The notes below the pieces were generated by a model. The model saw nothing but the letters and a program-made list of their open reading frames with translations, was not told the DNA's origin and did no database searches. A DNA stretch of 64,000 bases from assembly GCA_018897195.1 (NCBI GenBank), contig JAHILH010000005.1:745-64744 (forward strand), written 5' to 3'. The stretch comes from Patescibacteria group bacterium (GTDB lineage: Bacteria; Patescibacteriota; Patescibacteriia; Patescibacteriales; UBA12075). Shown here piece after piece: positions 5,554 through 64,000 of this stretch; the first letter of the stretch is position 1, and each line of letters opens with the position of its first letter. Both the position numbers and the translations under genes were made by a program.

Positions 5554-7218
5554 CTATCCAACTACTTTCCCACCAAATGTCTTCAACAGACTATCCAACA
5601 TATCGCCACCACCATTGCCACCTTCAACTTTCTCCACTGTCTCGGTGACTTGATTCTCGCGAATAATTTGCTCAGCTACTTCATCGGTCGGATCATTGTC
5701 AAAGCTAACCTCATGTGTTTCACTGATGTTTAGGGCTTCATTGACTATGGACTCGATTACTATCGTAGAACCAAAAATTTGTTTTAGGGCATCACTAACT
5801 ACTGCCTTCACCGCCGGTTCTTCAATACGATCACGGTGGAATTTGAACTTAAAAAATAATTTCAAAACTCCATTCTCAACAGCACCGGGAACACAAGCAC
5901 GTAAGACAAAACTCAAAGAGTGATTGTTTTTTTGCACCACCGCTAAAACATCATTCCATTTGGACATCATTTGTTGACTGCTAAAATTAACATTATCGCC
6001 CTGAGCATTAACCACTTGTACTGAATTTGGTTTCCGGGTTGGCTCTTGCCCCGTTTTTAAACCACTACCTGTGCCACTATTATCCGTAAAAACCGGGGCT
6101 GACATAGTTGGCGTTGAACATAATTCAATAATCGCCACCTCCACTGGTAATTGGATTATAAAACTTTCCTTAATTTCATTGCCAGCTTTAGTGAATTTTT
6201 CGATTGCGTTGATAACGCGACCAACCTCAATTTCCTTCAAAATTTTACTAATTTTCACTTCCACACCTTCGCCTAGCTCCAAACCAAATTTCTCAGACAA
6301 TTTCAAATTAATTTTACCCAACATTATCTTACGCAACAACTCAATCAAGTCTTTTAAAAATCTTTTTAAATCTACACCTTCGTCCATCACTTTATTCACC
6401 AAGGCAATCGCTGAGGCGGCATCTTTCTTGACCAATAGTTCAATCAAAGCAATCGCTTCGCCAATGTCACTACGAGGAATAACTAGGTTTGCGTCTTCTT
6501 GGGAAATACGACGCTTGCCATCTTTTATGTTTTCAGCAATAGCGATGATTTGTCCAAAAACACTTTCCGCATCACGCATATGTCCTTCTGACTGACGAGC
6601 AATATCTTCAAGAACCAAGTTATCGATTTCGATCTTTTCACTATTGGCAATATATTGCAATTTCTTTACCACATCAGTAATGTTAATGCGCTTAAAATCA
6701 AAACGCTGGCAACGAGAGATAATGGTCGCCGGAATCTTGTGCACTTCAGTTGTTGCTAAGATAAAGATAACATTCTTGGGTGGTTCTTCAATAACTTTCA
6801 AAAGGGCGTTAAAAGCCGAAATGGACAGCATGTGAACCTCGTCGATGATAAAGACTTTAAATTTTGCGCCCGAAGTAGAGATTTTTGAGACCGCGATGAT
6901 GTTCTCGCGAACATTGTCAACGCCAGTGTGACTCGCTGCATCAATCTCAATTACATCCACGCTCTTGCCAAGAGTAATTGCCTCACAGCTATCGCAGGTA
7001 TTACAAGGCTCACTTTCGCCCTCCTTGCGATTGACACAGTTAATTGCCTTAGCAAAGACACGCGCAATTGTAGTCTTACCAATACCGCGTGGACCACAAA
7101 AAAGATAAGCATGGGCAATCTTGTCCTGCTCAATTTCATATTTTAAAGTAGTTTTGATGTGATTTTGACCGACTAATTCATCAAAATTCTGCGGTCGGTA
7201 TTCTCTGTATATTGTCAT
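5554..7218 (-). CDS. dnaX: DNA polymerase III subunit gamma/tau
   Basis: GPRGIGKTT Walker A, Zn module CNTCDSCEAI, DEVHML, SRCQRF. Confidence 0.92.
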   Translation of the reverse strand: MTIYREYRPQNFDELVGQNHIKTTLKYEIEQDKIAHAYLFCGPRGIGKTTIARVFAKAINCVNRKEGESEPCNTCDSCEAITLGKSVDVIEIDAASHTGVDNVRENIIAVSKISTSGAKFKVFIIDEVHMLSISAFNALLKVIEEPPKNVIFILATTEVHKIPATIISRCQRFDFKRINITDVVKKLQYIANSEKIEIDNLVLEDIARQSEGHMRDAESVFGQIIAIAENIKDGKRRISQEDANLVIPRSDIGEAIALIELLVKKDAASAIALVNKVMDEGVDLKRFLKDLIELLRKIMLGKINLKLSEKFGLELGEGVEVKISKILKEIEVGRVINAIEKFTKAGNEIKESFIIQLPVEVAIIELCSTPTMSAPVFTDNSGTGSGLKTGQEPTRKPNSVQVVNAQGDNVNFSSQQMMSKWNDVLAVVQKNNHSLSFVLRACVPGAVENGVLKLFFKFKFHRDRIEEPAVKAVVSDALKQIFGSTIVIESIVNEALNISETHEVSFDNDPTDEVAEQIIRENQVTETVEKVEGGNGGGDMLDSLLKTFGGKVVG

Positions 7219-7484: not shown

Positions 7485-8141
7485 TTAATTTCGCACAATA
7501 TTATCAACGGCTGCCCATTTACTATCACCCGTCTTTGGCACCAAGACTACCACTTCATCGCCAACAGTACCACGGAAATATGTCACACTAGCAGTTAAAA
7601 CTTTCAATTTAAGACCATCGGCGTTCACAATAAATGAGCCACCGCCACCTTGCTCCAAAGTACCAACCACGCGCTTGCGATCAATCGGACCGATTTGTTT
7701 GTAAACAAAAGTTCCGGTTGGTGTAATAGTTAATTTCAGAATATCACCTTCAACTAATTTTGACTTAGACGCATAATTTGCGGGAATACTGTATTGCTTA
7801 CCGTCTGGGCCAATCATATTTTCACCATCAAAGACACCTTCAACAATTTTTCCTTCACCGTCATGTTCATCCTCGCCACCCTTATTAAAGCTGTCGTCAT
7901 GAATCTGGCTGATTGCAATTTTGTCCAAATCGCCAATACCAGCAACACCGGAAATCAAATTTATCAATCTCTCGTTATTCTCTCTAGCATTTTCCAATAA
8001 TTTTTTAATCAAAACAAATTTTGACTTACTCAAAACAACCACATCCTTATCACTTTTAACATCATCGGAGTTATCACCTTCTTCAAGCTCCAAGTCGTCA
8101 ACATTGAATTCATCATCCATGTTCATGTTTGTTTCTGCCAT
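7485..8141 (-). CDS. hypothetical protein with acidic N-terminus and beta-rich C-terminal domain; last gene of the envelope operon
   Basis: 218-aa ORF with no recognisable motif. Same strand and tight spacing with the upstream genes. Confidence 0.55.
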   Translation of the reverse strand: MAETNMNMDDEFNVDDLELEEGDNSDDVKSDKDVVVLSKSKFVLIKKLLENARENNERLINLISGVAGIGDLDKIAISQIHDDSFNKGGEDEHDGEGKIVEGVFDGENMIGPDGKQYSIPANYASKSKLVEGDILKLTITPTGTFVYKQIGPIDRKRVVGTLEQGGGGSFIVNADGLKLKVLTASVTYFRGTVGDEVVVLVPKTGDSKWAAVDNIVRN

Positions 8142-8390
8142 ATATTTGTGTTTTTGCCCAGCTAATTAAACCCTCCCTTTTTATTTAATAAAACTAGGTA
8201 AATTAACTAATTTTAGTTATTTTGTGGTCACCTGGAATTTAAATATTCCTGACCATACAAAAAACTTATAGTTTTTTTATATTTATTATCTAAGATAATT
8301 TATTTTATTATCTCTAATATATACCATTTATCCAGGTTTGGCAAGAGCAAATAGCAAGGGTTTTTATGTAGTAGTATTCTCATTTCGTTA

Positions 8391-8434
8391 GACTTCCCCT
8401 CACCCCAACCCTCTCCCGCCGGGGCGAGGGAGTC
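8391..8434 (+). repeat. GC-rich hairpin repeat, module A (REP-like)
   Basis: gacttcccctcaccccaaccctctcccgccggggcgagggagtc, immediately 3' of the ATPase gene stop at 8438. Confidence 0.8.
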
Positions 8435-8437
8435 TTA

Positions 8438-10945
8438 TTAAACACTGGTTCGACGACGAATTTCCGCCTCAATAATACTGCGATCTTGGCCAAATTTGAG
8501 ACGGCTCAAAGTCTTTATTTTTTGTGCCATTCCCTCTCGCTCAATACCAGCAATCGGCCAAGGGCAATGCATGGAAAAAGGACGACTGGCCGTATTATCA
8601 ATAAGAAGTTTTGTATAAACAGAATATTTTTCAACATTTAATAAATCATACTGACTAAAGACAGGACTAAATTCTTTTTCCAAAAATTCCGCATCTTCGG
8701 TGCCAATTCTAAAACTCACCATCGAACCGACGTTACCAAAAACGGCGTCCTTAATTGTCGTGTCACCCTTATTGACCATCTGTCCGATATATTGATGAGC
8801 GATGGTTAAATTCAAACTATATTTACGCGCCTCGGACAAAATAGAGCAAATTGAATCGGTGGTAAAATTTTGAAACTCGTCGATATATAAATAAAAATCC
8901 TTACGTTGTGCTTGCGGAATATCCGTACGCGACAAAGCATTCATTAAAATTTTACTAATTATGATCATGCCCAAAAGATAGGCATTCATCTCGCCAATGG
9001 CACCTTTGGACAAATCCACCAAAAGAATTTTTTGTTTATCCATAATATCGCGGAAATTGAACGAACTATTTTGTTGGCCGATAATCGGGCGCATCGTGTC
9101 ATTGGAAATAAACTGTGTCAACTTGGATGTAATATAGGGCACGACATTCGCCAGGGCCGCATCACCACCCGCCTTCTCGGCTTCTTGCTTCCAAAAATCA
9201 ACCACAGTTTGGTCCGCACAGCGCTCTAATTTCATTTTTCGAAAAGCTGGATTAGCCAACACTTTTGGCACTTCCATTAAAGTTGAACCGGATTCTGGAT
9301 CAGACATAATCAAGAGCAAGGCATTGCGCATATATTGTTCAAAGATTGGACCACCGGTCGCCTTTAAATCGTACAACTTATCAAAAATCTTAATCATCTC
9401 ATTAATTACAAAAGTTTTTTGCTCCGGATATTTCGGATCAAACTCAATCAAATTCAAAGCCATCGGCCGTTCAATGTCCGCCGGTCGGAATAAAATAACG
9501 TTTTCTGCTCTCTCGGGCGGAATGCGGGACAAGATATCGCTTACCAAGTCACCATGCGGATCCAAAACGCAAACGCCCTCACCATTAATAATATCTTGGA
9601 CAGCCATATTGGCAATGAATTGTGACTTACCACCACCAGACTTACCAACTACATACATATGACGACGACGATCGTCACGCTTGATGTGCACGTCTTTTTT
9701 AACACCACGATGCACATTATAACCAAGATAAACCCCTTCACTTGGCGTGTCTACCGGTGCCGGGGCATGACGAGCAGTTAACCATAAAATATTCGGCGTC
9801 TCGGTGTCTTTTAGGGGTAGATGAAAAAGACTAGCCATCTCTGTTGTATTTAACAAAAATGATTTACCTTCATTAAAACGACGATAGATAAAATCATGAA
9901 TAATGCGCTTCTTGTTGCCGGTATTAATACGGCTTGCAAAGCTGTTGCCATATTCATAAGAATTATATTGACTAAAAGCACTCGACAAATTTTCTAGATA
10001 GGTTTGCGCTCGTCCCTTATCCCGCGCTGCCACCACGATGCGTAAATTTACATCCATACCCGCACGTGCATTTTTTTCTTCAATACCTTTTAGAGCCTCT
10101 TGCTCCATTACAGTTAACATTTTTTGATTCTCGGACCTATTTGCCAAAGAAGGATCAGCCGAATGAAATACATCACCCAAAAAACCTAAAATTTTATGCA
10201 AGACCCCGGAGCTAAGTGCCTCTGATAAAGATTTTTTTTGATTAGCCTTACGAACCACCTCGCTCGCCTTGTAGTGCCAAGAATTTTTTGCACTACGAAT
10301 AGTATATTGGATCGCCAAACCCTCATCTTCATCCACCTTGGACATAACATTGATCAAAGAATTTGTTGAATCAGTATCTTGCTTTAAATAAGTACGCAAA
10401 GGTAAAACAAAATGTCTTGTTGTTTTTAAAGTGCCGGCCAAAATTTCAGACTTGTGATTAAAAATATTATAATCCTTCACCTCTTCCAATGACGCGTCCG
10501 GATAATGCGCATTGATTTGTTGTTCAATATAGCGCTCTGCTCCGCGTGGGGCCACGATATAGAAATGAATCTTTTTCTTATTCGCCACAATCTCAAAAGA
10601 ATAGCTATCATTACGACCATATAACCAAGCCTTAAAACCCCGCTCCGCCCGCAAGCCACCTATAGAAGAAAAGATTGTCTCACCTTTGGCAATTTCTTCG
10701 TGCAAGGATTGAACCCGATTTGTTTCATTGCCCTGGTTATTTCCTTGTTTGTCTTGAGGTAAACGGACTAAAAAAATAACGTAACGCTGAAAAGTCTTCT
10801 GCAAATATTTTTCCCGAATTATCAAGCGCGCAATATATAAAACCAAAAACAAAACAGCAAAAGCCGCCACATACCAAAACCAGCCACTCAAATCAATAAC
10901 ATAATCGTTGTTTATATTTTGTTGTAGTCCGTAATCCATAGACAA
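8438..10945 (-). CDS. membrane-anchored P-loop ATPase of the TraD/VirD4 (type IV coupling protein)-like family
   Basis: N-terminal TM helix, Walker A VVGKSGGGKS, Walker B YLYIDEFQNF, and AHQYIGQM near the C-terminus as in T4CPs. Confidence 0.75.
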   Translation of the reverse strand: MSMDYGLQQNINNDYVIDLSGWFWYVAAFAVLFLVLYIARLIIREKYLQKTFQRYVIFLVRLPQDKQGNNQGNETNRVQSLHEEIAKGETIFSSIGGLRAERGFKAWLYGRNDSYSFEIVANKKKIHFYIVAPRGAERYIEQQINAHYPDASLEEVKDYNIFNHKSEILAGTLKTTRHFVLPLRTYLKQDTDSTNSLINVMSKVDEDEGLAIQYTIRSAKNSWHYKASEVVRKANQKKSLSEALSSGVLHKILGFLGDVFHSADPSLANRSENQKMLTVMEQEALKGIEEKNARAGMDVNLRIVVAARDKGRAQTYLENLSSAFSQYNSYEYGNSFASRINTGNKKRIIHDFIYRRFNEGKSFLLNTTEMASLFHLPLKDTETPNILWLTARHAPAPVDTPSEGVYLGYNVHRGVKKDVHIKRDDRRRHMYVVGKSGGGKSQFIANMAVQDIINGEGVCVLDPHGDLVSDILSRIPPERAENVILFRPADIERPMALNLIEFDPKYPEQKTFVINEMIKIFDKLYDLKATGGPIFEQYMRNALLLIMSDPESGSTLMEVPKVLANPAFRKMKLERCADQTVVDFWKQEAEKAGGDAALANVVPYITSKLTQFISNDTMRPIIGQQNSSFNFRDIMDKQKILLVDLSKGAIGEMNAYLLGMIIISKILMNALSRTDIPQAQRKDFYLYIDEFQNFTTDSICSILSEARKYSLNLTIAHQYIGQMVNKGDTTIKDAVFGNVGSMVSFRIGTEDAEFLEKEFSPVFSQYDLLNVEKYSVYTKLLIDNTASRPFSMHCPWPIAGIEREGMAQKIKTLSRLKFGQDRSIIEAEIRRRTSV

Positions 10946-26016: not shown

Positions 26017-26090
26017 GCTCGCATAGCTCAGTTGGTTAGAGCACGGCTCTTATAAAGCCGGGGTCGACGGTTCAAGTCCATCTGCGAGCA
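26017..26090 (+). tRNA. tRNA-Ile (anticodon UAU)
   Basis: Acceptor GCTCGCA/TGCGAGC, D arm TAGCTCAGTTGGTTAGAGC, anticodon arm CGGCT-CTTATAA-AGCCG, T loop TTCAAGT. One C-A mismatch in the T stem. Confidence 0.8.
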
Positions 26091-26093
26091 CAT

Positions 26094-53391: not shown

Positions 53392-53400
53392 AAGTTTTCT

Positions 53401-53423
53401 TGCGGAGAAGGAGGGATTCGAAA
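53401..53423 (-). other. orphan tRNA 3'-end fragment (T loop plus acceptor 3' strand); candidate att remnant
   Basis: The reverse complement reads TTCGAATCCCTCCTTCTCCGCA (T loop, T stem 3' strand, acceptor 3' strand, discriminator). No matching 5' half lies upstream. Confidence 0.5.
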
Positions 53424-53685: not shown

Positions 53686-54570
53686 TTACAAAGTCTCTTC
53701 GTACGACTGCTTGATTATTTCAAAAACGTCATCAACCTCTTTTAATGTTTTTATTTTAATTCTACCCTTATAGCCCCACATGTGGGTGCTTATATCATTT
53801 ACTATTTTTTTTGGATCGTTATATTTAGGACTTCTAACTAAAACATCTAAAACGGTTTTCCCAAATTCAAATCGGATAAAACTTTTGGTTGTTCGATATG
53901 TAATACCAGTTTTCTGATTTGCCACCTCTTCAACCTCTGGCAATGCCTGAATTTTTTCTTGTAATTTATAAAAAATATCTTTTATCTCGTCTGTTGATTT
54001 ATGTCGGTTGAGATGAAAATTAATATCATAAGCTTCTTCTCCTTCAACTTCTATTTGCACAATATCTTCTTTTAATTTTTTAGACTTATTAGGCATGTAA
54101 ACATTTTCCAAGTATAAAATGTCCTGATTATACGGCACATATTTAATCAATTCCACACTATCCACTTGCTGAACTGCAATTATAGTCCGCTTGTCGAAGC
54201 CTTGAGCTACTAAAATTACACGTGGACTTGTCCAGTTAACCTTTATTTCCCTGCCAAGCTTATCGGCAACCAATAGATCAAAATGTCTTTTATTATTTTT
54301 AAGCCAATCAAAATAAAAAAGCCCCTGAACAAAGATGGCATTATCTTGACCCCATTTGTATTCAATAATTACTGGAGAATTAGTTTCATCAAGTGCTAAA
54401 GTATCAATTCGCCCATCGGTTGTTGGGTATTCAATCGACAAAAATCTCATACCCAATAACTGCTCAAGATTATCAGCAAAAAAATCCCTTAATTCGGCCT
54501 CGTTTTTAAAATGGTTGATATTAGAGTAAACTTGATTGGCTTTTTTGTTTTTGATTTGAAAAATTGGCAT
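53686..54570 (-). CDS. PD-(D/E)xK nuclease-like protein (NucS/DUF91-like N-terminus, DUF5655-like C-terminus)
   Basis: GRIDTLALDETNSPVIIEYK gives a D...ExK arrangement; 294 aa. Confidence 0.55.
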   Translation of the reverse strand: MPIFQIKNKKANQVYSNINHFKNEAELRDFFADNLEQLLGMRFLSIEYPTTDGRIDTLALDETNSPVIIEYKWGQDNAIFVQGLFYFDWLKNNKRHFDLLVADKLGREIKVNWTSPRVILVAQGFDKRTIIAVQQVDSVELIKYVPYNQDILYLENVYMPNKSKKLKEDIVQIEVEGEEAYDINFHLNRHKSTDEIKDIFYKLQEKIQALPEVEEVANQKTGITYRTTKSFIRFEFGKTVLDVLVRSPKYNDPKKIVNDISTHMWGYKGRIKIKTLKEVDDVFEIIKQSYEETL

Positions 54571-54772: not shown

Positions 54773-57571
54773 CTACCACTCAAACATGTCAACAATATTC
54801 TCAATCGCGCCCTTGATGCGATCCACAATCCCCTGTCGCTCTAAAATCCTTGGTGCCTTGGGCAGTAAATCAACAATCTCTTGTCCTTGTGGTAATCGTT
54901 GCGTGTATAGATATTCACCAATCAGTTGCTCAATCTTTTCAACGGGAATATTTTCCGCTTGGGCGATATTCTTCAATGAGTTCGAGCGCTCACTAGCCCA
55001 GAAATCACTAAAGGCTTTTTCAACATTGTCAGACTTGTCGATCTTGGGCAGATTTTCTTCGATAAACTTTCTAATTAAATCTTTCTTCATACGCAGTTTA
55101 ACATCGCGGTCGAAGATACGCAAAATCTCTTCGGTCTTTTTCTCGCGCACCGCCTTGGAGCTGATATTTTTTAAGCCCGCAATCAGTTGAATAATGTAAT
55201 CAAAATTAATCACATCGCGCATGGTCAGTTCTAATTCAAAATCAATCTGATCCAAAATCGATTCCACGCTACTGTCGTGGTTTTTTCGTTCCTCGTGAAT
55301 ATCTAAATACTTGCTTTGGTAATCGTAAAATTCCTGCTCGGAGATGCCTAGGTCGGTAAACGAAAACTCAGCGAAGGTTTCGAGTGACGACTTAATGCGC
55401 AATAAGTCGCGGAATGATTTTACAAATTCAGCTTTTTCCTCTTCACTCTTTAGAGTGTCGATCGAATCTAGCGTTGGCACTTTCTCTCGCAACTCTACTA
55501 GTTTATTTTCAAACTCATTTTTTTGTTCTTCGTATGGCTTTTTAAATACTACTTCTTTCGCATTTTCATCACCAAAAAGTGCCAAGGCTTTGTCGGTGGC
55601 TACTTTTAAATTTCTGAATGACACGATATTACCATGTGGCTTATCGGAGTCCAACAATCTGTTCGTTCTGGAATACGCCTGAATCAAGCCATGGTAACGC
55701 AAATTTTTATCGACATACAAAGTGTTAAGCCTTGGACTGTCAAAGCCAGTCAAAAACATATTGACCACCAGAATTAAATCAACCTCCTTGTTCTTGATTC
55801 GCTTTTGTAAATCGCGGTAATAGTCATAAAATCTATCAGTAGTAAAATTGGTTGAAAATGTCTTGTTATAATCTTTGATACAATCTTCCAAGAAATCGCG
55901 TGAGTGTTTATTACCCGCTGTGCCCTCACCTGCGAATACATCCACATCCAGCATGTCAGAGCTGTCATCCTCATTGGCTTGATAGGTAAATATTGTCGCG
56001 ATTTTAAAATCGTCTGCCTTCTTCTTTTTAAATAATGAATAATATCTTTTCAAAACTTCAATATTAGTTACCGCAAATAGTGCATTAAACTTTCCATTCT
56101 TTGTTTTTCGTTTCCAATCCGCCAAGACATAGTCAGCGATCTTATTCAATCGATCATCACTCTCCAAGATTTCTTTTGTATCAATCCCCTCCACCAAGGT
56201 CTCGGCAAAAATATCCGCATCCAAAGTGTCAGGATCTTTTTGTGTGTATTTGCCAACATACTCGACAGCGAAGCCAAGCACATTGTCATCAGAGATGGCA
56301 TGCGTAATAATATAACGATGTAAACACTCGCCAAAAACATCAGCCGTGGTCACTCCACCAACATTATTATCGGCGAATATCGGTGTGCCTGTAAAACCAA
56401 AGAGCTGTGCCTTTTTGAAGAATTTTTTAATTCGTCCGTGCGTCTGTCCGAATTGACTACGATGGCATTCATCGAAGATGATTACCACTTTTTCATCGAC
56501 CAAATAGTCGAATTGCTTTAGATACGCCTCTCGCCCAATGGCAATGTCTAACTTCTGTATAGTAGTCACAATCAATTTTCGATTCTTATCCTTGAGTTGT
56601 TTCACCAAGCTCATCGTGTTATCGGTGCCGTCCACTGAGCCATCAGAAAAAGAATTAAATTCTTTCGTCGTTTGAATGTCTAAATCCTTGCGATCCACCA
56701 CAAATAAAACTTTCTTCACCTCTGGCATCTGTGCCAAAATCTGACTCGCCTTAAACGAGGTCAATGTCTTACCTGATCCAGTCGTATGCCAAATATAGCC
56801 ATTCTTATCTGACTCACGCACGCGTTCCTCAATCTCTTTAACAGCATAATATTGATAAGGTCGCAGTGTCATGGGAATTTGCAACGATTCAGCTAGCACA
56901 ATATACTCCGCAATCATTTCCGACACGGTGCATTTTTCCAAGAACGCATCAGCAAACTCATCCAGCTTGGTAATTTTACAGTTATCCGCATCAGTCCAAT
57001 AAAAAGTCTGCTCGAATGACTGTTTCGGATTGTTAGAAAAATATTTAGTATTTACACCATTAGAAATCACAAAGATCTGCACATACTCAAAAAGCGTTCC
57101 CGTAAACGAGTGCTTATGATACCGCTGAATCTGATTAAAAGCCTCCTTCATCTCCACCCCTCGGCGCTTGAGCTCAATATGCACCAATGGCAAGCCATTA
57201 ACGAGCAAAGTCACATCGTAGCGATTTTCATATCGTCCAACTTGAGTGATTTGATTGGTTACTTGGTATTCATTCTTACACCATTGATCCATATTAAAAA
57301 ACCGCACATAAAAAGTGCTCTCATCGTCACGAGCTAACGCAAATCGGTCTCGCAATATTTTCGCTTTTTGAAAACGATCGCCTTTGTTTAGGTGATTCAA
57401 TATGCGAGTGAACTCGGCATCGGAAAATACTGCTTGATTAAACAACTCTAACTGAGCGCGAAGATTTAGCATCAACGCGTCGTTGTCTTCAATGACAACG
57501 CCAGCAAAGCCTAGACGGTTTAGTTGCTCAATTAATGTTTTTTCTAGTTGTTGTTCGGATTGGTGGGTCAT
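54773..57571 (-). CDS. hsdR: type I restriction enzyme R subunit
   Basis: N-terminal nuclease motif (RYDVTLLVNGLPLVHIELKR), then HTTGSGKTLTS, FDECHRSQ, FTGTP, QAYSRTNR. Confidence 0.93.
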   Translation of the reverse strand: MTHQSEQQLEKTLIEQLNRLGFAGVVIEDNDALMLNLRAQLELFNQAVFSDAEFTRILNHLNKGDRFQKAKILRDRFALARDDESTFYVRFFNMDQWCKNEYQVTNQITQVGRYENRYDVTLLVNGLPLVHIELKRRGVEMKEAFNQIQRYHKHSFTGTLFEYVQIFVISNGVNTKYFSNNPKQSFEQTFYWTDADNCKITKLDEFADAFLEKCTVSEMIAEYIVLAESLQIPMTLRPYQYYAVKEIEERVRESDKNGYIWHTTGSGKTLTSFKASQILAQMPEVKKVLFVVDRKDLDIQTTKEFNSFSDGSVDGTDNTMSLVKQLKDKNRKLIVTTIQKLDIAIGREAYLKQFDYLVDEKVVIIFDECHRSQFGQTHGRIKKFFKKAQLFGFTGTPIFADNNVGGVTTADVFGECLHRYIITHAISDDNVLGFAVEYVGKYTQKDPDTLDADIFAETLVEGIDTKEILESDDRLNKIADYVLADWKRKTKNGKFNALFAVTNIEVLKRYYSLFKKKKADDFKIATIFTYQANEDDSSDMLDVDVFAGEGTAGNKHSRDFLEDCIKDYNKTFSTNFTTDRFYDYYRDLQKRIKNKEVDLILVVNMFLTGFDSPRLNTLYVDKNLRYHGLIQAYSRTNRLLDSDKPHGNIVSFRNLKVATDKALALFGDENAKEVVFKKPYEEQKNEFENKLVELREKVPTLDSIDTLKSEEEKAEFVKSFRDLLRIKSSLETFAEFSFTDLGISEQEFYDYQSKYLDIHEERKNHDSSVESILDQIDFELELTMRDVINFDYIIQLIAGLKNISSKAVREKKTEEILRIFDRDVKLRMKKDLIRKFIEENLPKIDKSDNVEKAFSDFWASERSNSLKNIAQAENIPVEKIEQLIGEYLYTQRLPQGQEIVDLLPKAPRILERQGIVDRIKGAIENIVDMFEW

Positions 57572-58425
57572 AAATTATTGTTAACATATCTCAGTAGCAA
57601 TCCCGTTTGGTATATTAAAAATTCATTTTCAGAATCATTAATTTCACCATCGTTGTGCTTACTATTTTCATTAAAATATGTATCAAGATAATTAAAAATT
57701 GATCCAATTATATTTCGCACTTGTGCATCGCGTCCATCTGTTTTTAATTTTTTTTGTAATTCCAGAATATTGGCATTTAACCCTCTTGTATTTTTCATTA
57801 CATATTTCAAAAACTCTTCCAAAGTCCTACGAAGACTATCTGCTGATTTTATATAATTTTTTGCTTGATAAAATTTTAATGCCTGGACAAAATGATCAGC
57901 GCTATTACTCTTTAAAAATGACAGAGGATGATCAACTAATTTGTCGTCAAGAACTTCTTCACCTTTTGGATATAAAATAACATCATCACCTGCGACCGTA
58001 ATTGATAAATTTATGTCTGAATAATTAACTGCATCTAAAACTTTATCGTAAAGTATACTTCTGCTATATATATCACGACGATCATATCCAGTTCGTGATG
58101 ATATTTCTAATGAAAAGATCAACTCAATTAGACGATAAAATTCTTTTTCACTATTTTCCTGATATAGCCGATTTTCTATGTTTTTACTCCACACACGATC
58201 CCCAAAGGTTTCGCTTTTCCACACTTCTTCAATTCCGTAATACTGGCAAAACAAAGAAACACTTTCTTTGCTCACATAACTATCAATATTCTTAAAAATA
58301 TTTAAAATTCTTGTCTTGAATTTTTTAAATGCCTCCTCGTAAGATTCTGAGGATTCGACACTCCACCTTTTATTAAATTTCTCCATTCGTTCTCTTAGAT
58401 TCATATTATTTATTTCAACAACCAT
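57568..58425 (-). CDS. hypothetical all-alpha protein embedded in the type I R-M operon
   Basis: 285-aa ORF whose stop overlaps the hsdR start (ATGA). GGTGAGGTGG lies upstream. No motif recognised. Confidence 0.6.
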   Translation of the reverse strand: MVVEINNMNLRERMEKFNKRWSVESSESYEEAFKKFKTRILNIFKNIDSYVSKESVSLFCQYYGIEEVWKSETFGDRVWSKNIENRLYQENSEKEFYRLIELIFSLEISSRTGYDRRDIYSRSILYDKVLDAVNYSDINLSITVAGDDVILYPKGEEVLDDKLVDHPLSFLKSNSADHFVQALKFYQAKNYIKSADSLRRTLEEFLKYVMKNTRGLNANILELQKKLKTDGRDAQVRNIIGSIFNYLDTYFNENSKHNDGEINDSENEFLIYQTGLLLRYVNNNL

Positions 58426-58524
58426 CTGACCACCTCACCCACACTCTCTAGATTGAGCGATGCGTTGTTTGTTTTAATTATTATTCCAACCAAATTAAAT
58501 GCAAAATATCGTGAATCTTATATA

Positions 58525-59541
58525 TTAAAATAGTGCCTGTTGGTTATCACAAGCCGTTTCTTGTTTTTTTGCTGGCTTTATTTTATGCACAATTTGATCT
58601 TTGTTATAACTTTTTACCTCTTTTATATAAATACCTCTGTTCTGAAATACATTTCCCTTTAACTCTCCAGAAATATCGAAAACTATCCGCATATTATCCT
58701 TCACGGCAAATGCTCGCTCTTTGTTAGAAATTTGATCTTTAAAATCAGAATCTTGCATATAAAATTCAATATCATCACCATCTCTTAAAACAGATATTTC
58801 ATTATAAAAAATATTATCACCATAGTATGTGCCTCTCCATGGTATCCCCTTACCCTCTTTCTTCTGCCGAACTACTGGCGAAATTAACTCAACAACCCCC
58901 TCTATATTTTCTCTAAAATACTTAGCATCTAGAATTGGTTCAATATATTTAACAAAATCATTTCGCTCAATCATTTTAGAAAAAACTTGCTCACTTTGGG
59001 CATTCTTTAGAATGGTTTCGTTATTTTTTATCATACCATCCCTGTTAAGCGTATTATAAAAATTGTTTTTTCTTTTTTTTAAAATTATGTTTCCACAAAC
59101 CTCTAGAATCTTTTCTTGAGGAATGTTTTCTACTTCATAATTATTGTTTAAATCCTCTAATTGTTTCTGTAATTCTAAACATTTAACAGTATCATCGATA
59201 ACCCACAAGCGACTGTCGTGTATGTGCGTCTCATGCACATCTCTATAATTAAGGTAACCAAGAACCAAACCACCGATAGTCATAACTGTTCCGACGGACA
59301 CTCCTATTTTATTTTTTTTTACAAATTTTACAATGTCCTTATATGACCCTGGCTCAGGAGGTAACAGATAAATATTAAAAACATCGTCTGGAAATAAAAT
59401 TTCTGACATCTCGCGAATCATCACGACAAGATCTTCGGAGCATTTATTTCTAGTATCCGCCTTAATAAAATGCTCAGAAACTCCGAAATGCGTTTCGATT
59501 ATAATAAAATCTTCAATTTTAATCTCATCCAAATTCTTCAT
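58525..59541 (-). CDS. hypothetical protein with one predicted TM helix, embedded in the type I R-M operon
   Basis: 338-aa ORF starting 9 nt after the hsdS stop. Hydrophobic segment IGVSVGTVMTIGGLVLGYL. No motif recognised. Confidence 0.6.
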   Translation of the reverse strand: MKNLDEIKIEDFIIIETHFGVSEHFIKADTRNKCSEDLVVMIREMSEILFPDDVFNIYLLPPEPGSYKDIVKFVKKNKIGVSVGTVMTIGGLVLGYLNYRDVHETHIHDSRLWVIDDTVKCLELQKQLEDLNNNYEVENIPQEKILEVCGNIILKKRKNNFYNTLNRDGMIKNNETILKNAQSEQVFSKMIERNDFVKYIEPILDAKYFRENIEGVVELISPVVRQKKEGKGIPWRGTYYGDNIFYNEISVLRDGDDIEFYMQDSDFKDQISNKERAFAVKDNMRIVFDISGELKGNVFQNRGIYIKEVKSYNKDQIVHKIKPAKKQETACDNQQALF

Positions 59542-59550
59542 ACGCCACTA

Positions 59551-60831
59551 TTACACAAACAATCCCTGCATCAACCCCTTCTTCCACCCCTCAGCCTTTG
59601 CGATCTGTTGTTGCTTAGATTCTATTAAGTTATCGATTGATGTTAAAAAATCAGCTATTTTTTGTTGTTCAAGAATAGATGGAAATGAAAATTTAATTTT
59701 AATCATTTGTGACACCTTAACACTTGGCTGAACACCACCCATTTCAATTCTTTTAAACTGATGATTATTTCTCTTTTCCGTGAGCAAATAAAACATGAAG
59801 TTAGGATTCTCATTTTTAAAACGAAGCCCTACGATATTTTGAGCGACAACAGATTGTTTATCTCCTCTATAACAAGAACATAACGCAGTCGCGCCAACAG
59901 TCGAAAACAAAATATCATTCGGTTGTAAATATTTTCTAAACCAACTACTGAATGTTTTTTCGCTTACATATTTACTAACCCTAGAATAGTCCACAAACTT
60001 TCCCCCTAAAGAATTTACCTCCAATAGGGGTATTCCAGATGATTCAATTGGTGGCGTCTTTCCGCGATTATCAATAACAATATTTAAAACATCGCCAAAT
60101 CTTTTCCTGCTCCACTCACCAAATATCAATCCGTCTTCGCCTATAAACCGAACCTCTTGCGAAAATATCTTCTTAATAATTCCTTTCCTATAACCAGCCA
60201 AAGCCTCTTTTTGCGCACGCAAATTTTCAATCCATCCATCTACTACCAAAAAATAGTTGGCAATTTTTTGTTGCTCTGACAAGGACGGAAATAAAACCCT
60301 CACAGAACCAAGATCATCTTGACCAATAGTTGTCATCGTTGCCGTCTTACCACGCGAAACTAATTGACGACGAATATTATTAATTTTCAGAAGTCTATCT
60401 AAAAACTTTGGAAATATCACACTACTATCAGGTCTCATTCTAATGATGTGTCCGTCAAATGTTATATCATTTTCATCACTGTTTAAAATGTTAGAATAAG
60501 CTATACCCTCCTTAACCAAAGATGACCGAGTAAAGAAAATATCCCCAGCAACAGCCTTGTTTCTATTAAATTCTTCACTACTCAACTCGACTCTTGTTAA
60601 ATTTTTGACATTAATCTCCGTCCCAGAATACATATCTTTAACATTAATAAGTCTATAACCCGATCCAACTTTGCCAGGATCATTAAATACACCATTACTA
60701 AAACCACCCAGTTTGAGATCTTTCAATCTCCTCTCATCCCATGCACCAAAAAAACCCGAAAATCTCAACTTCGGAATTCTTTGCGCTTCTGATTGTTTAG
60801 TTTTTATTGGCATATTATTTTTAGTTACCAA
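59551..60831 (-). CDS. hsdS: type I restriction-modification specificity subunit
   Basis: Two target-recognition halves, each followed by a conserved helix (FPSLSEQQKIANYF and FPSILEQQKIADFL). Confidence 0.88.
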   Translation of the reverse strand: MVTKNNMPIKTKQSEAQRIPKLRFSGFFGAWDERRLKDLKLGGFSNGVFNDPGKVGSGYRLINVKDMYSGTEINVKNLTRVELSSEEFNRNKAVAGDIFFTRSSLVKEGIAYSNILNSDENDITFDGHIIRMRPDSSVIFPKFLDRLLKINNIRRQLVSRGKTATMTTIGQDDLGSVRVLFPSLSEQQKIANYFLVVDGWIENLRAQKEALAGYRKGIIKKIFSQEVRFIGEDGLIFGEWSRKRFGDVLNIVIDNRGKTPPIESSGIPLLEVNSLGGKFVDYSRVSKYVSEKTFSSWFRKYLQPNDILFSTVGATALCSCYRGDKQSVVAQNIVGLRFKNENPNFMFYLLTEKRNNHQFKRIEMGGVQPSVKVSQMIKIKFSFPSILEQQKIADFLTSIDNLIESKQQQIAKAEGWKKGLMQGLFV

Positions 60832-61451
60832 AGCTTGTTCTTCTCGTCTTTCAACGATCTCAATCGCTCTACGAGCTTATACACCAATGTTGACGGATCT
60901 CTTTTTATATAAGAAGAGACTCCTTGATCATTAAAATCTTTTTCCAGTCTTTTCGCATTTTTAATAGCCACCTGCTCCTTGTCTTTTACAAGTTCATAAA
61001 CATCGAAACTACTTTTCTTGTTATATTTTTTACCGAGTAGCTCTGACAACTTTTTCTCATACTGTCTTCGACCAATGGCAGTGTTTAAAAATTCAAAGTG
61101 AAGAATAAACCACAGCTCAAAACATTCATTGGAATAAGCCACATTTATACCATTATCTATAGCTAATTTTATAGATTTATCAAAATGCTCATGATCGTCC
61201 CTGTCAAAAACAACCCACCACTCAGTTGCAACATCTTCATCACTACCTTCCTCCTGTTTCATTTTAAGCACCGACTCTACCAATGGCAAAGTATGATCAC
61301 CAAGACCCCAAACAACTATATCAATCTCGCTCATTCGCAATTCATCCCTGATTGAATTAAAATATTTCGGCTCCGTGTTTATGCCCTCAGTAAAAATCTT
61401 AATAACTGTATGCGGTTTGCGAATATTTATTTTTCTTGGAAATTTAGACAT
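60825..61451 (-). CDS. RloB-like protein
   Basis: N-terminal IKIFTEGINTEPKYF resembles the RloB signature (..CEGe.TEp.YF). Its stop overlaps the hsdS start. Confidence 0.6.
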   Translation of the reverse strand: MSKFPRKINIRKPHTVIKIFTEGINTEPKYFNSIRDELRMSEIDIVVWGLGDHTLPLVESVLKMKQEEGSDEDVATEWWVVFDRDDHEHFDKSIKLAIDNGINVAYSNECFELWFILHFEFLNTAIGRRQYEKKLSELLGKKYNKKSSFDVYELVKDKEQVAIKNAKRLEKDFNDQGVSSYIKRDPSTLVYKLVERLRSLKDEKNKLW

Positions 61452-61454
61452 AAT

Positions 61455-62705
61455 CTATTTCTTAGTGCTATGAATAAAAGGCAATGCGCCAAATCGCCCT
61501 TCGAGATATTTCTTTGAAAATTCCGTATCATTTCTAATATCAAACTCAGCCAAAGAAAATAATTTAGCGGAACCGAATTCATCTTTCTCGGTAAACCAAA
61601 ACTGATCCTTAATAAACTCCCCTTTGTTTGCGAGCAGGCTGGTGTCATGTGTTGTAACGATAAGTTGGGCGTTGTTCTTGTTTATATCTTTTGACTCAAA
61701 GAGATTAACAATAAACTTGGTAAGTATCGGATGAAGACTATTGTCAAACTCATCAATAAACAAAACCTTGCCACCATCAAGCGTATCAATTATCGGACCA
61801 AGCGCGGAAAGAAACTTCTTTGTGCCTTCTGACTCTGCATCAATTAAAATCTCGAACGATCCTGATCTATTATTTTTGGCGTCATAAACTGGATGCTCAA
61901 AAAATAAAGCATTGCCCTTTTCTACTCGCTTCGTTGCAGAAAACCCCTCTTGACCATCTTTGATGTCAACAGCGCTAACATCAACCTCCTCCACTCTCCC
62001 ATTGGAAATGCAAAAATCAGCAGTCCTTAAATATTCAAGAATCTTTTCTTTGTAAACCGCATCCTCTTTAAACTTTTTCACGGTAAAGTTTTGATAATTT
62101 CCAGGTATAATTCCAGAGATAATATTTATACTCTTTAGAGCCTCTAAAAAATTTAAAGCGAGCGTGCTATTAAACTGAGCCGCCATTGATAAGAACAAAG
62201 TGTCCTTACGAGTTCTGTCGCGAATCATTTCAACATCTTTAAATTCTTTTCCAATTTTTATTTCTTGTTCGTTTCGCGAAATATACATTTTTACCGACCC
62301 AGACGACGATATCTTAACTAAATCCTCTGAGACAACACGATCATGCATGATTGAGAAATTATATCGATACGCCCCTTCATTAATTCCATCAATAGAAAAA
62401 ACTAACTCAAAAAAAATCGGACTTTCTCTGTTTTCCTTATTTCCCATAAAAGGAGAATAAGGAAGCATGGAATTCTCTTGTATATTTGCAGAAAATGATA
62501 CAATACTCTTAAAAAAAATAAGCGCCTCTAACAGTGTGCTTTTACCAGAAGCGTTTGGTCCATAAATAAACGATGTTTTAAGAAGATTCTCACCGTTATC
62601 TTTAAAGGTGTGCTTATCATTTTTCTGCGCAACTGTAGAAAAAGTAACCTTATTTTTAAAGGTTTTAAAATTTTGCACCGAAAACTCAATAATTGAAATT
62701 TGCAT
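61455..62705 (-). CDS. AAA/ABC-type ATPase (AAA_15/AAA_21, RloA-like)
   Basis: IYGPNASGKSTLLEAL Walker A, VLFIDEFDNSLHP Walker B, VTTHDT. Confidence 0.8.
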   Translation of the reverse strand: MQISIIEFSVQNFKTFKNKVTFSTVAQKNDKHTFKDNGENLLKTSFIYGPNASGKSTLLEALIFFKSIVSFSANIQENSMLPYSPFMGNKENRESPIFFELVFSIDGINEGAYRYNFSIMHDRVVSEDLVKISSSGSVKMYISRNEQEIKIGKEFKDVEMIRDRTRKDTLFLSMAAQFNSTLALNFLEALKSINIISGIIPGNYQNFTVKKFKEDAVYKEKILEYLRTADFCISNGRVEEVDVSAVDIKDGQEGFSATKRVEKGNALFFEHPVYDAKNNRSGSFEILIDAESEGTKKFLSALGPIIDTLDGGKVLFIDEFDNSLHPILTKFIVNLFESKDINKNNAQLIVTTHDTSLLANKGEFIKDQFWFTEKDEFGSAKLFSLAEFDIRNDTEFSKKYLEGRFGALPFIHSTKK

Positions 62706-62739
62706 ATATTTTACATAATATTAATAATTACATATAAAC

Positions 62740-62767
62740 ATTATACATAAATTAATAAAAATTGCAA
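62740..62767 (-). promoter_or_regulatory. candidate internal sigma70 promoter for the ATPase-RloB-hsdS genes
   Basis: On the minus strand: TTGCAA (62767-62762), a 16-nt spacer, then TATAAT (62745-62740). Confidence 0.45.
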
Positions 62768-62895
62768 GTTTTTTACATTTTCTGTTATTTTAATCCATTT
62801 CTTTACCCTTGACTGATTATCTGAATAATATATAATATAAATATCAATACCTGTCACGCCTCTTAACAATGCGAAACCGACAGGTTTTTTTGCGT

Positions 62896-64000
62896 TTAGA
62901 ACGGCTTGCCAATTCCCAGCTCATCGCAAAACTCCGCAATCTTATTTTGCAAACCAATCTCATTAGCATTCAATTTCCTCAGGCTCTCTGCCACCGCTTC
63001 AATATCAATTACCTCCTCCTCTTCAAAAGTATCCACATAGCGTGGAATATTCAAATTGTATTCATTCTCACGAATCTCCTCCATTGTTGCCCGATGGGAG
63101 TATTTCTCGATCTCTTTGCGCTCTTTGTAGGTCACAAAAATCTTCGCAATGTTATCATCAGTCAATTTGTTTTGATTCTTTTCTTTTACAAAATCTTTAG
63201 ACGCATCAATAAACAGAATACCCTCGTCATCACGACGGCATTTCTTAAACACCAACACAGTAGCAGGGATTGAAGTGCCATAAAAAAGATTAGCGGGCAA
63301 ACCAATTACGGCATCGAGGTAGTTTTGTTTTTCAATGATATGCTTGCGAATATGCCCCTCAGCTCCAGAGCGAAACAAGGCGCCATGTGGTAACACAACA
63401 GCCATAGTGCCATTATCCGCCAAGTGGTAAAGCATGTGCGTCACAAAAGCGTAATCAGCCGCACTTTTTGGCGCTAGTCGTCCGTATTGTGAGAATCTGT
63501 CGTCATGAGCTAGTTGCGGATCAGTGTCGCCCTTCCATTGAGCCGAGAACGGTGGATTGGCTACTATTGCCTCAGCTTTAAGATCGGCGTGCATATCCTC
63601 TTTGAGCGTATCACCGTGGCGAATATCGAAATGGTCGAAGTGAACGCCATGCAAGATCATGTTCATGCGAGCCAAATTGTAAGTCGTTGGGTTTTGTTCT
63701 TGACCGAAATAACTAACCACATCAGTGTAGTCACCGATACGAAGCAAGAGTGAGCCAGAGCCACAAGTCGGATCATAGACAGACTTAATTCGTTTCTTGT
63801 CTTGAGACACAATCTGAGCCAACAGCCGAGAGATTTGGGCAGGGGTATAAAACTCACCGCCTTTCTTGCCAGCACCAGCAGCGAATTCGCCGATCAGGTA
63901 TTCATAGGCATCACCAAGTAAGTCACTCTTAGTGTCTTCCAGCTTGAAATCTATACCACTGAGCAAAGACAACACCTCAACTACCACTTCATTCTTTTGA
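62896..64000 (-). CDS. hsdM: type I restriction-modification methyltransferase subunit (partial; N-terminus beyond window)
   Basis: DPTCGSGSLL AdoMet motif and the catalytic motif IVANPPFS. The reading frame stays open to position 64000. Confidence 0.92.
   Translation of the reverse strand, partial: QKNEVVVEVLSLLSGIDFKLEDTKSDLLGDAYEYLIGEFAAGAGKKGGEFYTPAQISRLLAQIVSQDKKRIKSVYDPTCGSGSLLLRIGDYTDVVSYFGQEQNPTTYNLARMNMILHGVHFDHFDIRHGDTLKEDMHADLKAEAIVANPPFSAQWKGDTDPQLAHDDRFSQYGRLAPKSAADYAFVTHMLYHLADNGTMAVVLPHGALFRSGAEGHIRKHIIEKQNYLDAVIGLPANLFYGTSIPATVLVFKKCRRDDEGILFIDASKDFVKEKNQNKLTDDNIAKIFVTYKERKEIEKYSHRATMEEIRENEYNLNIPRYVDTFEEEEVIDIEAVAESLRKLNANEIGLQNKIAEFCDELGIGKPF

Follow-up and report, generated by a model that had tools for sequence, protein, structure and literature searches.

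Which function do two additional genes serve that lie between the methyltransferase gene hsdM and the specificity gene hsdS of a type I restriction–modification (R-M) operon, and how are they maintained there? This question is raised by a stretch of 64,000 nucleotides (nt) from a Patescibacteria group bacterium (contig JAHILH010000005.1, positions 745–64,744), here called the window. Coordinates are positions in the window, L-numbers denote retrieved contigs and loci, and L081 is the contig which spans the region and the stretch beyond the end of the window. The genes of the hsd region are all found on the minus strand, in the order hsdM, a 190-nt AT-rich gap, an open reading frame (ORF) of 416 amino acids (aa), an ORF of 208 aa, hsdS, an ORF of 338 aa, an ORF of 278 or 285 aa, and hsdR. 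The two ORFs between hsdM and hsdS are a bona fide AbiL module (AbiLi/AbiLii, corresponding to RloA/RloB), adjacent, co-oriented and conserved as a pair. We suggest that the module is probably a cassette with its own promoter, which sits as swappable cargo at the hsdM–hsdS junction of an island at a tRNA-Ser gene, and in which the ATPase would be the sensor and the RloB protein the nuclease effector. The features on which this proposal is built are the following.

61455–62705, minus strand: abiLi, rloA-like ABC ATPase, 416 aa (Pfam, PADLOC, invariant motifs)
60825–61451, minus strand: abiLii or rloB, Toprim-like putative nuclease, 208 aa (Pfam, PADLOC, NCBI name)
62740–62778, minus strand: predicted promoter of the AbiL cassette (scan and conservation in relatives)
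62706–62716, minus strand: second ATGTAAAATAT box, immediately 5′ of the AbiLi start codon (conservation in relatives)
62896–64000, minus strand: 3′ two-thirds of hsdM, type I methyltransferase (Pfam N6_Mtase 2e-112, TIGR00497 hsdM 4e-111)
59551–60813, minus strand, with a mechanically called TTG start at 60831: hsdS, specificity subunit with two target-recognition domains (Methylase_S in two stretches, PADLOC Specificity_I 6.6e-73)

Identity of the gene pair

A preliminary description, made from the letters of the window, had placed an ATPase and an RloB-like protein at 60825–62705 between hsdM and hsdS. Both ORFs are found exactly there and the flanking genes are identified by Pfam; the 190 nt that it gave for the gap after hsdM and the 3 nt between the two genes are likewise correct, as the stop codon TAG of abiLi and 3 nt separate two distinct ORFs.

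The 416-aa protein matches Pfam AAA_21 with 1.3e-27 (98.1 bits, cut-off 27) and AAA_15 with 6e-11, and is recognised by the PADLOC model AbiLi (PDLC02335) with 1.2e-86. Its Walker A motif GPNASGKS comprises residues 49–56, the signature residues 291–295, the Walker B motif with the D-loop residues 315–321 and the H-loop residues 351–354; the stretch LFIDEFDNSLHP corresponds to residues 315–326 and TTHDT to residues 351–355. All three motifs named in the preliminary description, GPNASGKS, Walker B and TTHDT, are thus present, and the catalytic residues do not vary in the homologues: G49, N51, A52, G54, K55, E291, S292, G294, T295, D318, E319, D321, T351, H353 and D354 are invariant across 32 AbiLi proteins. 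The set of motifs with which ATP is bound and hydrolysed is complete. The family is large, with more than 6398 homologues at E ≤ 1e-10, and the closest homologues with a named source (57–68% identical) come from Patescibacteria. Weaker PADLOC matches point to the AriA model (1.3e-26) and the HEC-01A models (∼1e-14). In PrrC and RloC the ATPase is fused to a C-terminal anticodon-nuclease domain; the 416-aa protein has no extra C-terminal domain, and the PrrC and RloC models are not among the 25 PADLOC matches listed out of 67. A search of the Protein Data Bank (PDB) sequences with the ATPase returned solely PtuA and the ATPase of retron Ec83, both weakly.

The 208-aa protein matches Pfam RloB with 1.6e-41 (143.1 bits, cut-off 31.5) over 193 of the 195 profile positions and the PADLOC model AbiLii with 2.5e-27; the identical protein is named "RloB family protein [Candidatus Parcubacteria bacterium]" at NCBI. 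The N-terminal RloB signature which had been noted before, IFTEGINTEPKYF, is located at residues 19–31. Among 42 RloB homologues E22 (>90%), G23, T26, E27, W79, V81, D83, D85, N108, E112, W114 and H118 are conserved. The families that had been assigned to the two proteins, AAA_21/AAA_15 and RloB, are therefore found well above the curated cut-offs, and the defence finder PADLOC calls the pair AbiLi/AbiLii. The preliminary description had recognised the families; it mentioned neither the name AbiL nor the abiF RNA and the two genes between hsdS and hsdR that are described below.

In addition, 80 genome loci were fetched with the ATPase profile. They span Patescibacteria, Bacteroidota, Bacillota, Pseudomonadota, Spirochaetota and one archaeon, and in ∼70 of them an RloB homologue directly follows AbiLi; the pairing of AbiLi and RloB is obligate. 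The database matches, the invariant residues and this conserved pairing together identify the module as AbiL/RloAB, an abortive-infection system of two genes that is already known.

Relationship to OLD and PARIS

The link of AbiL to PARIS and OLD has already been published, with one tree for the AAA15/21 defence ATPases (PMC11464382), and a 2026 review groups AbiL with PARIS and OLD and regards its mechanism as not established (PMC13064643), in agreement with what the preliminary description had said about ATPase/RloB pairs. Can the relationship be recognised in the proteins of the window? The AlphaFold2 model of the RloB protein (predicted local distance difference test, pLDDT, 88.6; predicted template modelling score 0.84) alternates between helices and four parallel strands. 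As in Toprim domains, E22 directly follows strand 1 and D83xD85 closes strand 3.

Several searches did not confirm a nuclease fold of this kind. Foldseek with the model against the PDB gave no match at E ≤ 1e-3 and no OLD or Toprim structure, its top matches being generic Rossmann-like three-layer alpha/beta proteins with a template modelling (TM) score of ∼0.3; in the viral library BFVD only another RloB-like protein was retrieved (TM 0.79). Each of the Pfam Toprim models touches just one of the 42 homologues, with E ∼0.1, and similarity to DUF4435/AriB was not found for the RloB protein or the 42 homologues even at E ≤ 10. A profile search of the PDB sequences did not reveal a solved RloB relative, and hhalign of the RloB profile against the single P2 Old sequence gave nothing.

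As the structure, Pfam and PDB-sequence searches did not confirm a Toprim domain, an alignment of P2 Old and ten plasmid homologues (11 sequences) was built. AbiLi aligns with the ATPase part of this OLD alignment (Prob 96.9, E 1.6e-10) and RloB with the C-terminal Toprim part (P 9e-4), with the catalytic residues in register: the RloB motif TEGxxTE containing E22 falls on VEGxTE of OLD, and the RloB strand WVVFDRD containing D83xD85 on the DxD strand of OLD. When RloB was compared with full-length OLD, the best local alignment was again to the Toprim part (P 0.0036), and the controls with reversed OLD profiles and with an unrelated profile gave P values of 0.24–0.45.

The putative Toprim fold of RloB is therefore based on motifs, predicted topology and profile alignment, because Foldseek found no significant nuclease match. 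In the same way the parallel to split OLD and PARIS systems drawn in the preliminary description is borne out by the profile alignments to OLD and by the Toprim-like topology of the model, and not by the structure comparison, which retrieved no OLD or Toprim nuclease. AbiLi and RloB appear to reproduce the OLD layout of an ATPase followed by a Toprim part, in the same order, as two polypeptides. In the OLD nucleases (P2 Old, class 1) both parts are one polypeptide, and the similarity of the OLD Toprim domain to RloB is very remote and is not recovered by Foldseek. PARIS (AriA/AriB) is likewise split into an ABC ATPase plus an effector of the Toprim type, but its effector AriB is a DUF4435 Toprim protein, whereas the effector of the window belongs to the RloB family, without detected DUF4435 similarity. 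The Ocr trigger, the hexameric assembly and the cleavage of tRNA-Lys are established for PARIS and not for AbiL.

A predicted promoter carried by the cassette

On the minus strand of the gap after hsdM we find an upstream box ATGTAAAAAAC at 62778–62768, a −35 element TTGCAA at 62767–62762 and a −10 element TATAAT at 62745–62740. In a promoter scan the site TTGCAA-16-TATAAT (62767–62740) scores 10 of 12 matches. By itself the scan is weak and proves nothing, because 44 promoter-like sites were found in the AT-rich 10 kb where 33.9 are expected. The comparison with relatives is more informative. In the three loci L004, L006 and L015, in which AbiL is also found between hsdM and hsdS, nothing of the intergenic gap is conserved except TGTAAAAAACTTGCA and the −10 region. 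When the sequences 5′ of 26 closely related AbiLi genes were anchored on their start codons, TTGCA was found at −64 to −55 in 22 relatives (background 0.8% per 10-nt window). A GTAAA/TTTAC box is present at −82 to −63, just 5′ of the −35 element, in 21 of them and a second one at −22 to −1, just 5′ of the ATG, in 18 (background 4.9% per 20-nt window in both cases). Thus, the conservation of these elements indicates that the cassette brings its own predicted promoter, and it supports the suggestion of the preliminary description that TTGCAA-N16-TATAAT allows the pair to be expressed independently of hsdM.

The two ATGTAAAA-type boxes (62706–62716 and 62768–62778) lie on either side of the AbiL promoter, each at a set distance from the start codon, and are conserved in most close loci (L001–L027) in varied genomic contexts. 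The box pair is probably operator-like and may form an autoregulatory operator; the second ATGTAAAATAT box may be part of such an operator or a translation-initiation element.

For hsdS the public gene call begins with the ATG at 60813, yielding a protein of 420 aa which starts 11 nt after the stop codon of RloB. This is probably the correct start. In the preliminary description the stop codon of RloB overlaps the start of hsdS; this applies only if the TTG at 60831 is used, which is unlikely, and the overlap disappears with the ATG. With 11 nt between the RloB stop and its own start, hsdS is most likely on one transcript with the cassette and driven by the cassette promoter, and the restriction enzyme would therefore stay expressed despite the insertion.

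Exchangeable cargo in a type I operon

Is the position of AbiL between hsdM and hsdS specific for this operon? Compared with L004, L006 and L015 the AbiLi proteins are 51–60% and the AbiLii proteins 54–65% identical, but HsdM is just 33% and HsdR 26–29% identical. As the identity is high for AbiL and low for HsdM and HsdR, type I families that are not related to each other share the cassette at one and the same hsdM–hsdS junction. The metagenomic contig L214, by contrast, encodes a type I system like that of the window (HsdM 80% and HsdR 77% identical), and its hsdM–hsdS slot (5774–6739) is filled with an unrelated protein of 321 aa with a hydrophobic, membrane-helix-like N-terminus, without a gap. 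AbiL is thus exchangeable cargo in the slot between hsdM and hsdS, and the type I operon around it is intact. Flanking repeats that would mark the cassette as a transposable unit were not found beyond chance.

Other Patescibacteria type I operons carry other cargo at this junction, namely a single AAA_15/AAA_21 ATPase of 520 aa in L206 (2537–4099) and a ThsB-type TIR protein together with a small ORF in L212 (5881–6797). The hsdS–hsdR slot of L214 contains three genes.

The type I system itself is complete and apparently intact (HsdM 525 aa, HsdS 420 aa, HsdR 932 aa in L081). The full hsdM, with an HsdM_N domain, is found at 8233–9810 of L081 and starts ∼473 nt past the end of the window. Further features of the region are the following.

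58525–59541, minus strand: embedded gene of 338 aa, PDC-S42 (PADLOC)
57568–58404, minus strand: embedded gene of 278 aa, PDC-S32, with a longer form of 285 aa from 58425 (PADLOC)
54773–57571, minus strand: hsdR, restriction subunit with an EcoR124-type C-terminus (Pfam HSDR_N, SWI2_SNF2, T1R_D3-like and EcoR124_C; TIGR00348 3.7e-148)
53399–53422, minus strand: attR, 24-nt copy of the tRNA-Ser(CGA) 3′ end (direct repeat)
62809–62892, plus strand: small RNA gene with abiF motif (Rfam RF03085)

Beyond the end of the window L081 contains four small ORFs, a gene of a tyrosine integrase (2621–3763) and a tRNA-Ser(CGA) gene (2514–2604). The last 24 nt of this tRNA gene recur at 53399–53422 of the window with 23 of 24 positions identical, forming a direct repeat at 2582–2605 and 19284–19307 of L081; a single copy is present within the window, where 0 would be expected by chance. 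Since the repeat of the tRNA 3′ end and the adjacent tyrosine integrase delimit the borders, we conclude that the region is an island of ∼16.7 kb at tRNA-Ser. It includes the complete type I system together with AbiL, both extra embedded genes and a DUF5655/NucS-like gene. The guanine and cytosine content between the gap at hsdM and the 278-aa gene (57500–62999) is 0.31–0.39 and lower than in the flanks; hsdR (0.38–0.42) is not distinct.

The last gene of the island (53686–54570, minus strand, 294 aa) begins with a weakly NucS_C-like nuclease part (1e-4), ends with DUF5655 (7e-9) and may be a further defence or DNA-processing gene. Elsewhere in the window, at 26017–26091 on the plus strand, a tRNA-Ile with the anticodon UAU is encoded, which is unusual in bacteria; in most bacteria AUA is read by a lysidine-modified CAU tRNA.

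Two more genes are embedded between hsdS and hsdR. The 338-aa protein matches PDC-S42 of PADLOC (2.7e-27) and has no match in Pfam, PHROG or NCBIfam; a copy with 56% identity occupies the same slot in L214, and a hydrophobic stretch at ∼79–97, judged by the sequence, is a probable membrane helix. The 278-aa protein matches PDC-S32 (2e-18), and the stop of its gene overlaps the start of hsdR. Its family, 54–71% identical among the best 120 of 334 matches and without a Pfam domain, has the invariant residues R192, R193, E196, E197, N245..K249 and H250. The AlphaFold2 model (pLDDT 86.7) ends in a helical bundle, for which the best Foldseek match is 2q00_A (prob 1.00, TMt 0.62, E just 0.05), followed by 4nqf, a 'HEPN domain protein'; the C-terminal helical domain is thus predicted to be HEPN-like. 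Homologues are encoded between hsdS and hsdR in L205, L206, L212 and L214, with overlapping stops and starts, and outside of type I systems as well.

An orphan abiF RNA upstream of the cassette

The gap between hsdM and AbiLi harbors a match to the abiF RNA (Rfam RF03085) at 62850–62885 on the plus strand with 45.3 bits (gathering score 37, E 4e-6, model positions 1–37), which folds as the family consensus. It has the parts of a gene: TTGACT-16-TATAAT (62809–62836), which with 11 of 12 matches is the best promoter-like site of the region and ends 13 nt 5′ of the hairpin, the hairpin itself, and a run of seven T (62886–62892). This RNA gene is divergent from AbiLi and convergent with hsdM, so that further downstream the plus strand is antisense to hsdM.

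How does this compare to other abiF RNAs? A scan of metagenomes with the motif core yielded 84 well-formed hairpins, and in many of them a −10 box, ∼13 nt, the hairpin and a T-run follow each other as in the window. In 35 of 57 cases the ORF downstream of the motif is of the Abi_2 type (AbiF) and starts ∼20 nt after it, as published for the AbiF RNA–antitoxin system, in which the abiF RNA is found upstream of the AbiF gene (PMC12373285). Other metagenomic motifs stand without an AbiF gene. Neither the 64-kb window nor L081 (8 kb beyond) contains an AbiF/Abi_2 ORF, the best E-value of a hidden Markov model built from 21 metagenomic AbiF ORFs being 9.9. A cryptic AbiF partner in the locus was rejected since Abi_2 does not match any neighbouring ORF at E ≤ 10. 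We also rejected the abiF RNA as a conserved partner of AbiL, because a regular expression found no motif in the 80 AbiL loci; in 11 close AbiL loci Rfam detected none at the gathering score. A partnership with the HEPN-like 278-aa protein is not supported either, as six loci with homologues lack the abiF RNA, and in 120 loci with abiF motifs no homologue of any window protein is encoded. The RNA is thus a self-contained orphan abiF gene and the most unusual item of the locus.

A simpler reading would be that the hairpin at 62850–62885 is a bidirectional terminator of hsdM, that the abiF match is incidental and that AbiL is transcribed by read-through from hsdM. The hairpin does begin 11 nt and end 46 nt after the hsdM stop and is flanked by an A-run and a T-run, and hairpins after hsdM are found in L006 and L015 as well. 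On the other hand, the Rfam score exceeds the gathering threshold by 8 bits and the match includes the conserved loop nucleotides GCCUCUnAACnAUGC, the T-run and the best promoter-like site of the region lie on the plus strand with a spacing typical of genuine abiF RNA genes, and L004, L006 and L015 do not give an abiF match even at E ≤ 10. We therefore consider a mere terminator with read-through unlikely and retain the orphan RNA gene and the promoter of the cassette.

As candidate roles of the orphan RNA a decoy antitoxin, the displaced antitoxin of a distant AbiF or a mere terminator can be named. By analogy, phage pseudo-ToxI acts as a decoy against ToxIN, and the RNA could be an island-borne, functional antitoxin acting in trans as a decoy against HEPN toxins of the AbiF family, whether these come from the host or from competing elements; to this idea we give little credence at present. 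If it were true, the locus would join defence (the type I R-M system, AbiL and the two candidate genes) with an RNA-based counter-defence. Bolder still is the idea that the abiF RNA might regulate AbiL through the shared divergent promoter region. The hairpin most similar to that of the window (metagenomic contig L165, ∼9161–9195, minus strand) is also an orphan and is followed by an ORF of the ArdC-like anti-restriction/zincin type (8074–9033, minus strand). This hints that mobile elements may carry orphan abiF RNAs together with anti-defence genes.

Possible mode of action

The relatives of the module might give a hint how it works. Extrapolating from PARIS, OLD and the ATPase–TOPRIM pairs embedded in Hma systems, the AbiLi ATPase would oligomerise, keep the nuclease inactive and sense infection. 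Binding or hydrolysis of ATP, or binding of a trigger, in response to a phage cue would free or activate the RloB nuclease, which could then cleave tRNA or DNA of the host or the phage so that the infection is aborted. An anti-restriction protein directed against the adjoining type I enzyme could serve as the phage cue; sensing of such proteins has been proposed for embedded ABC ATPase systems (bioRxiv 10.1101/2024.01.29.577857). Some points have to be held against our proposal. The sensor, the trigger and the substrate of AbiL are all assigned by analogy, the transcription start sites are predictions, and type I operons house no more than 3 of the 80 related AbiL loci. The last number implies that a functional tie to the restriction enzyme is not required. 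In fact AbiL homologues are common on plasmids, including plasmids of 4.8 kb, and AbiL can do without the restriction enzyme.

A guard role for the type I enzyme is attractive, yet not required by this distribution. In its strict form, modelled on PrrC and EcoprrI, AbiL would be coupled to HsdM/HsdS, held latent and fired when an anti-restriction protein disables the restriction complex. For such a dedicated guard speak the fact that type I systems from different families carry the cassette at the same hsdM–hsdS junction, the presence of hsdS within 11 nt and probably on the same transcript, the location of rloAB in Campylobacter type I loci (PMC2928727) and the triggering of PARIS and PrrC by anti-restriction proteins (PMC11464382; bioRxiv 10.1101/2024.01.29.577857). 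But ∼95% of the sampled related AbiL loci lack adjoining type I genes, the 4.8-kb plasmids also carry homologues, the closest relative of the type I system has a different gene in the slot, and the original lactococcal AbiL acts from a plasmid (PMC13064643). We thus find a dedicated guard quite improbable and prefer an AbiL cassette that travels as cargo.

Still less probable, and in our opinion hardly to be expected, is that AbiL mainly serves as an addiction module of the toxin–antitoxin type which stabilises the island or the hsd operon instead of stopping phages, with the nuclease as toxin and the ATPase as antitoxin: the integrase-bearing island, the frequent homologues on plasmids, very small ones included, the boxes around the promoter which resemble the autoregulatory operator of toxin–antitoxin operons and the behaviour of PARIS as a type II pair in E. 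coli (PMC13064643) would fit, but AbiL was discovered through its anti-phage phenotype (PMC13064643), the toxicity of RloB alone is purely hypothetical, and the roles in defence and addiction are not exclusive.

Comparison with known systems

The AbiL system of Lactococcus lactis plasmid pND861, listed as 'AbiL' in PADLOC and DefenseFinder, is built like the present pair, as an operon of two genes, the first for an ABC ATPase of the AAA_21/AAA_15 kind and the second for a protein of the RloB family. The lactococcal proteins of Deng et al. 1999 are reportedly larger, and the present copy, known from its genes alone, is found in a metagenome-assembled genome of an uncultured member of the Patescibacteria, in a type I operon on an island at tRNA-Ser. 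RloA/RloB of Campylobacter jejuni are from the same protein families, and their genes also lie within an hsd cluster; the Pfam family RloB is named after the Campylobacter protein, and the preliminary description was right in recalling that these R-linked ORFs were found in Campylobacter type I loci (PMC2928727). The copy of the window differs in its phylum and in the EcoR124-type C-terminus of HsdR; its own slot is that between hsdM and hsdS, and two more genes occupy the one between hsdS and hsdR.

Two further systems are likewise a second line of defence nested in a first one. HEC-01 and other pairs of ABC ATPase and TOPRIM protein, described by 'guilt-by-embedding' (Payne et al. 2024 preprint), are as here ABC-ATPase defences nested in a methylation-based system, but HEC-01 is embedded in Hma systems and the pair of the window in a type I operon. 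PrrC of the EcoprrI locus is a single fused ATPase–anticodon nuclease and occupies the hsdS–hsdR slot.

Significance

As a call the pair matters little: it is already recognised by standard defence-finder tools and by NCBI, and both the kinship to OLD and PARIS and the nesting in type I operons are published. The cassette is a fresh copy of an already catalogued anti-phage system, and the features of its context, namely the promoter, the slot exchange, the island and the orphan RNA, leave this ranking unchanged. To our knowledge AbiL is among the last classical Abi systems without a mechanism, and well-defined, compact homologues like the present one are therefore useful for biochemistry. The strongly conserved two-box promoter before AbiL genes across phyla is a handle on their regulation.

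The locus illustrates cleanly, in a natural setting, that a type I operon can offer two slots for cargo; in a sister genome the same backbone carries different cargo. The cargo between hsdM and hsdS brings its own promoter and would thereby keep hsdS expressed. In this tiny bacterium of the candidate phyla radiation, whose genome we take to be ∼1 Mb, the type I R-M system, AbiL, the gene of the predicted HEPN-like protein, the gene of the probable membrane-helix protein and the orphan abiF RNA are assembled in a compact, multi-layer defence island of ∼17 kb.

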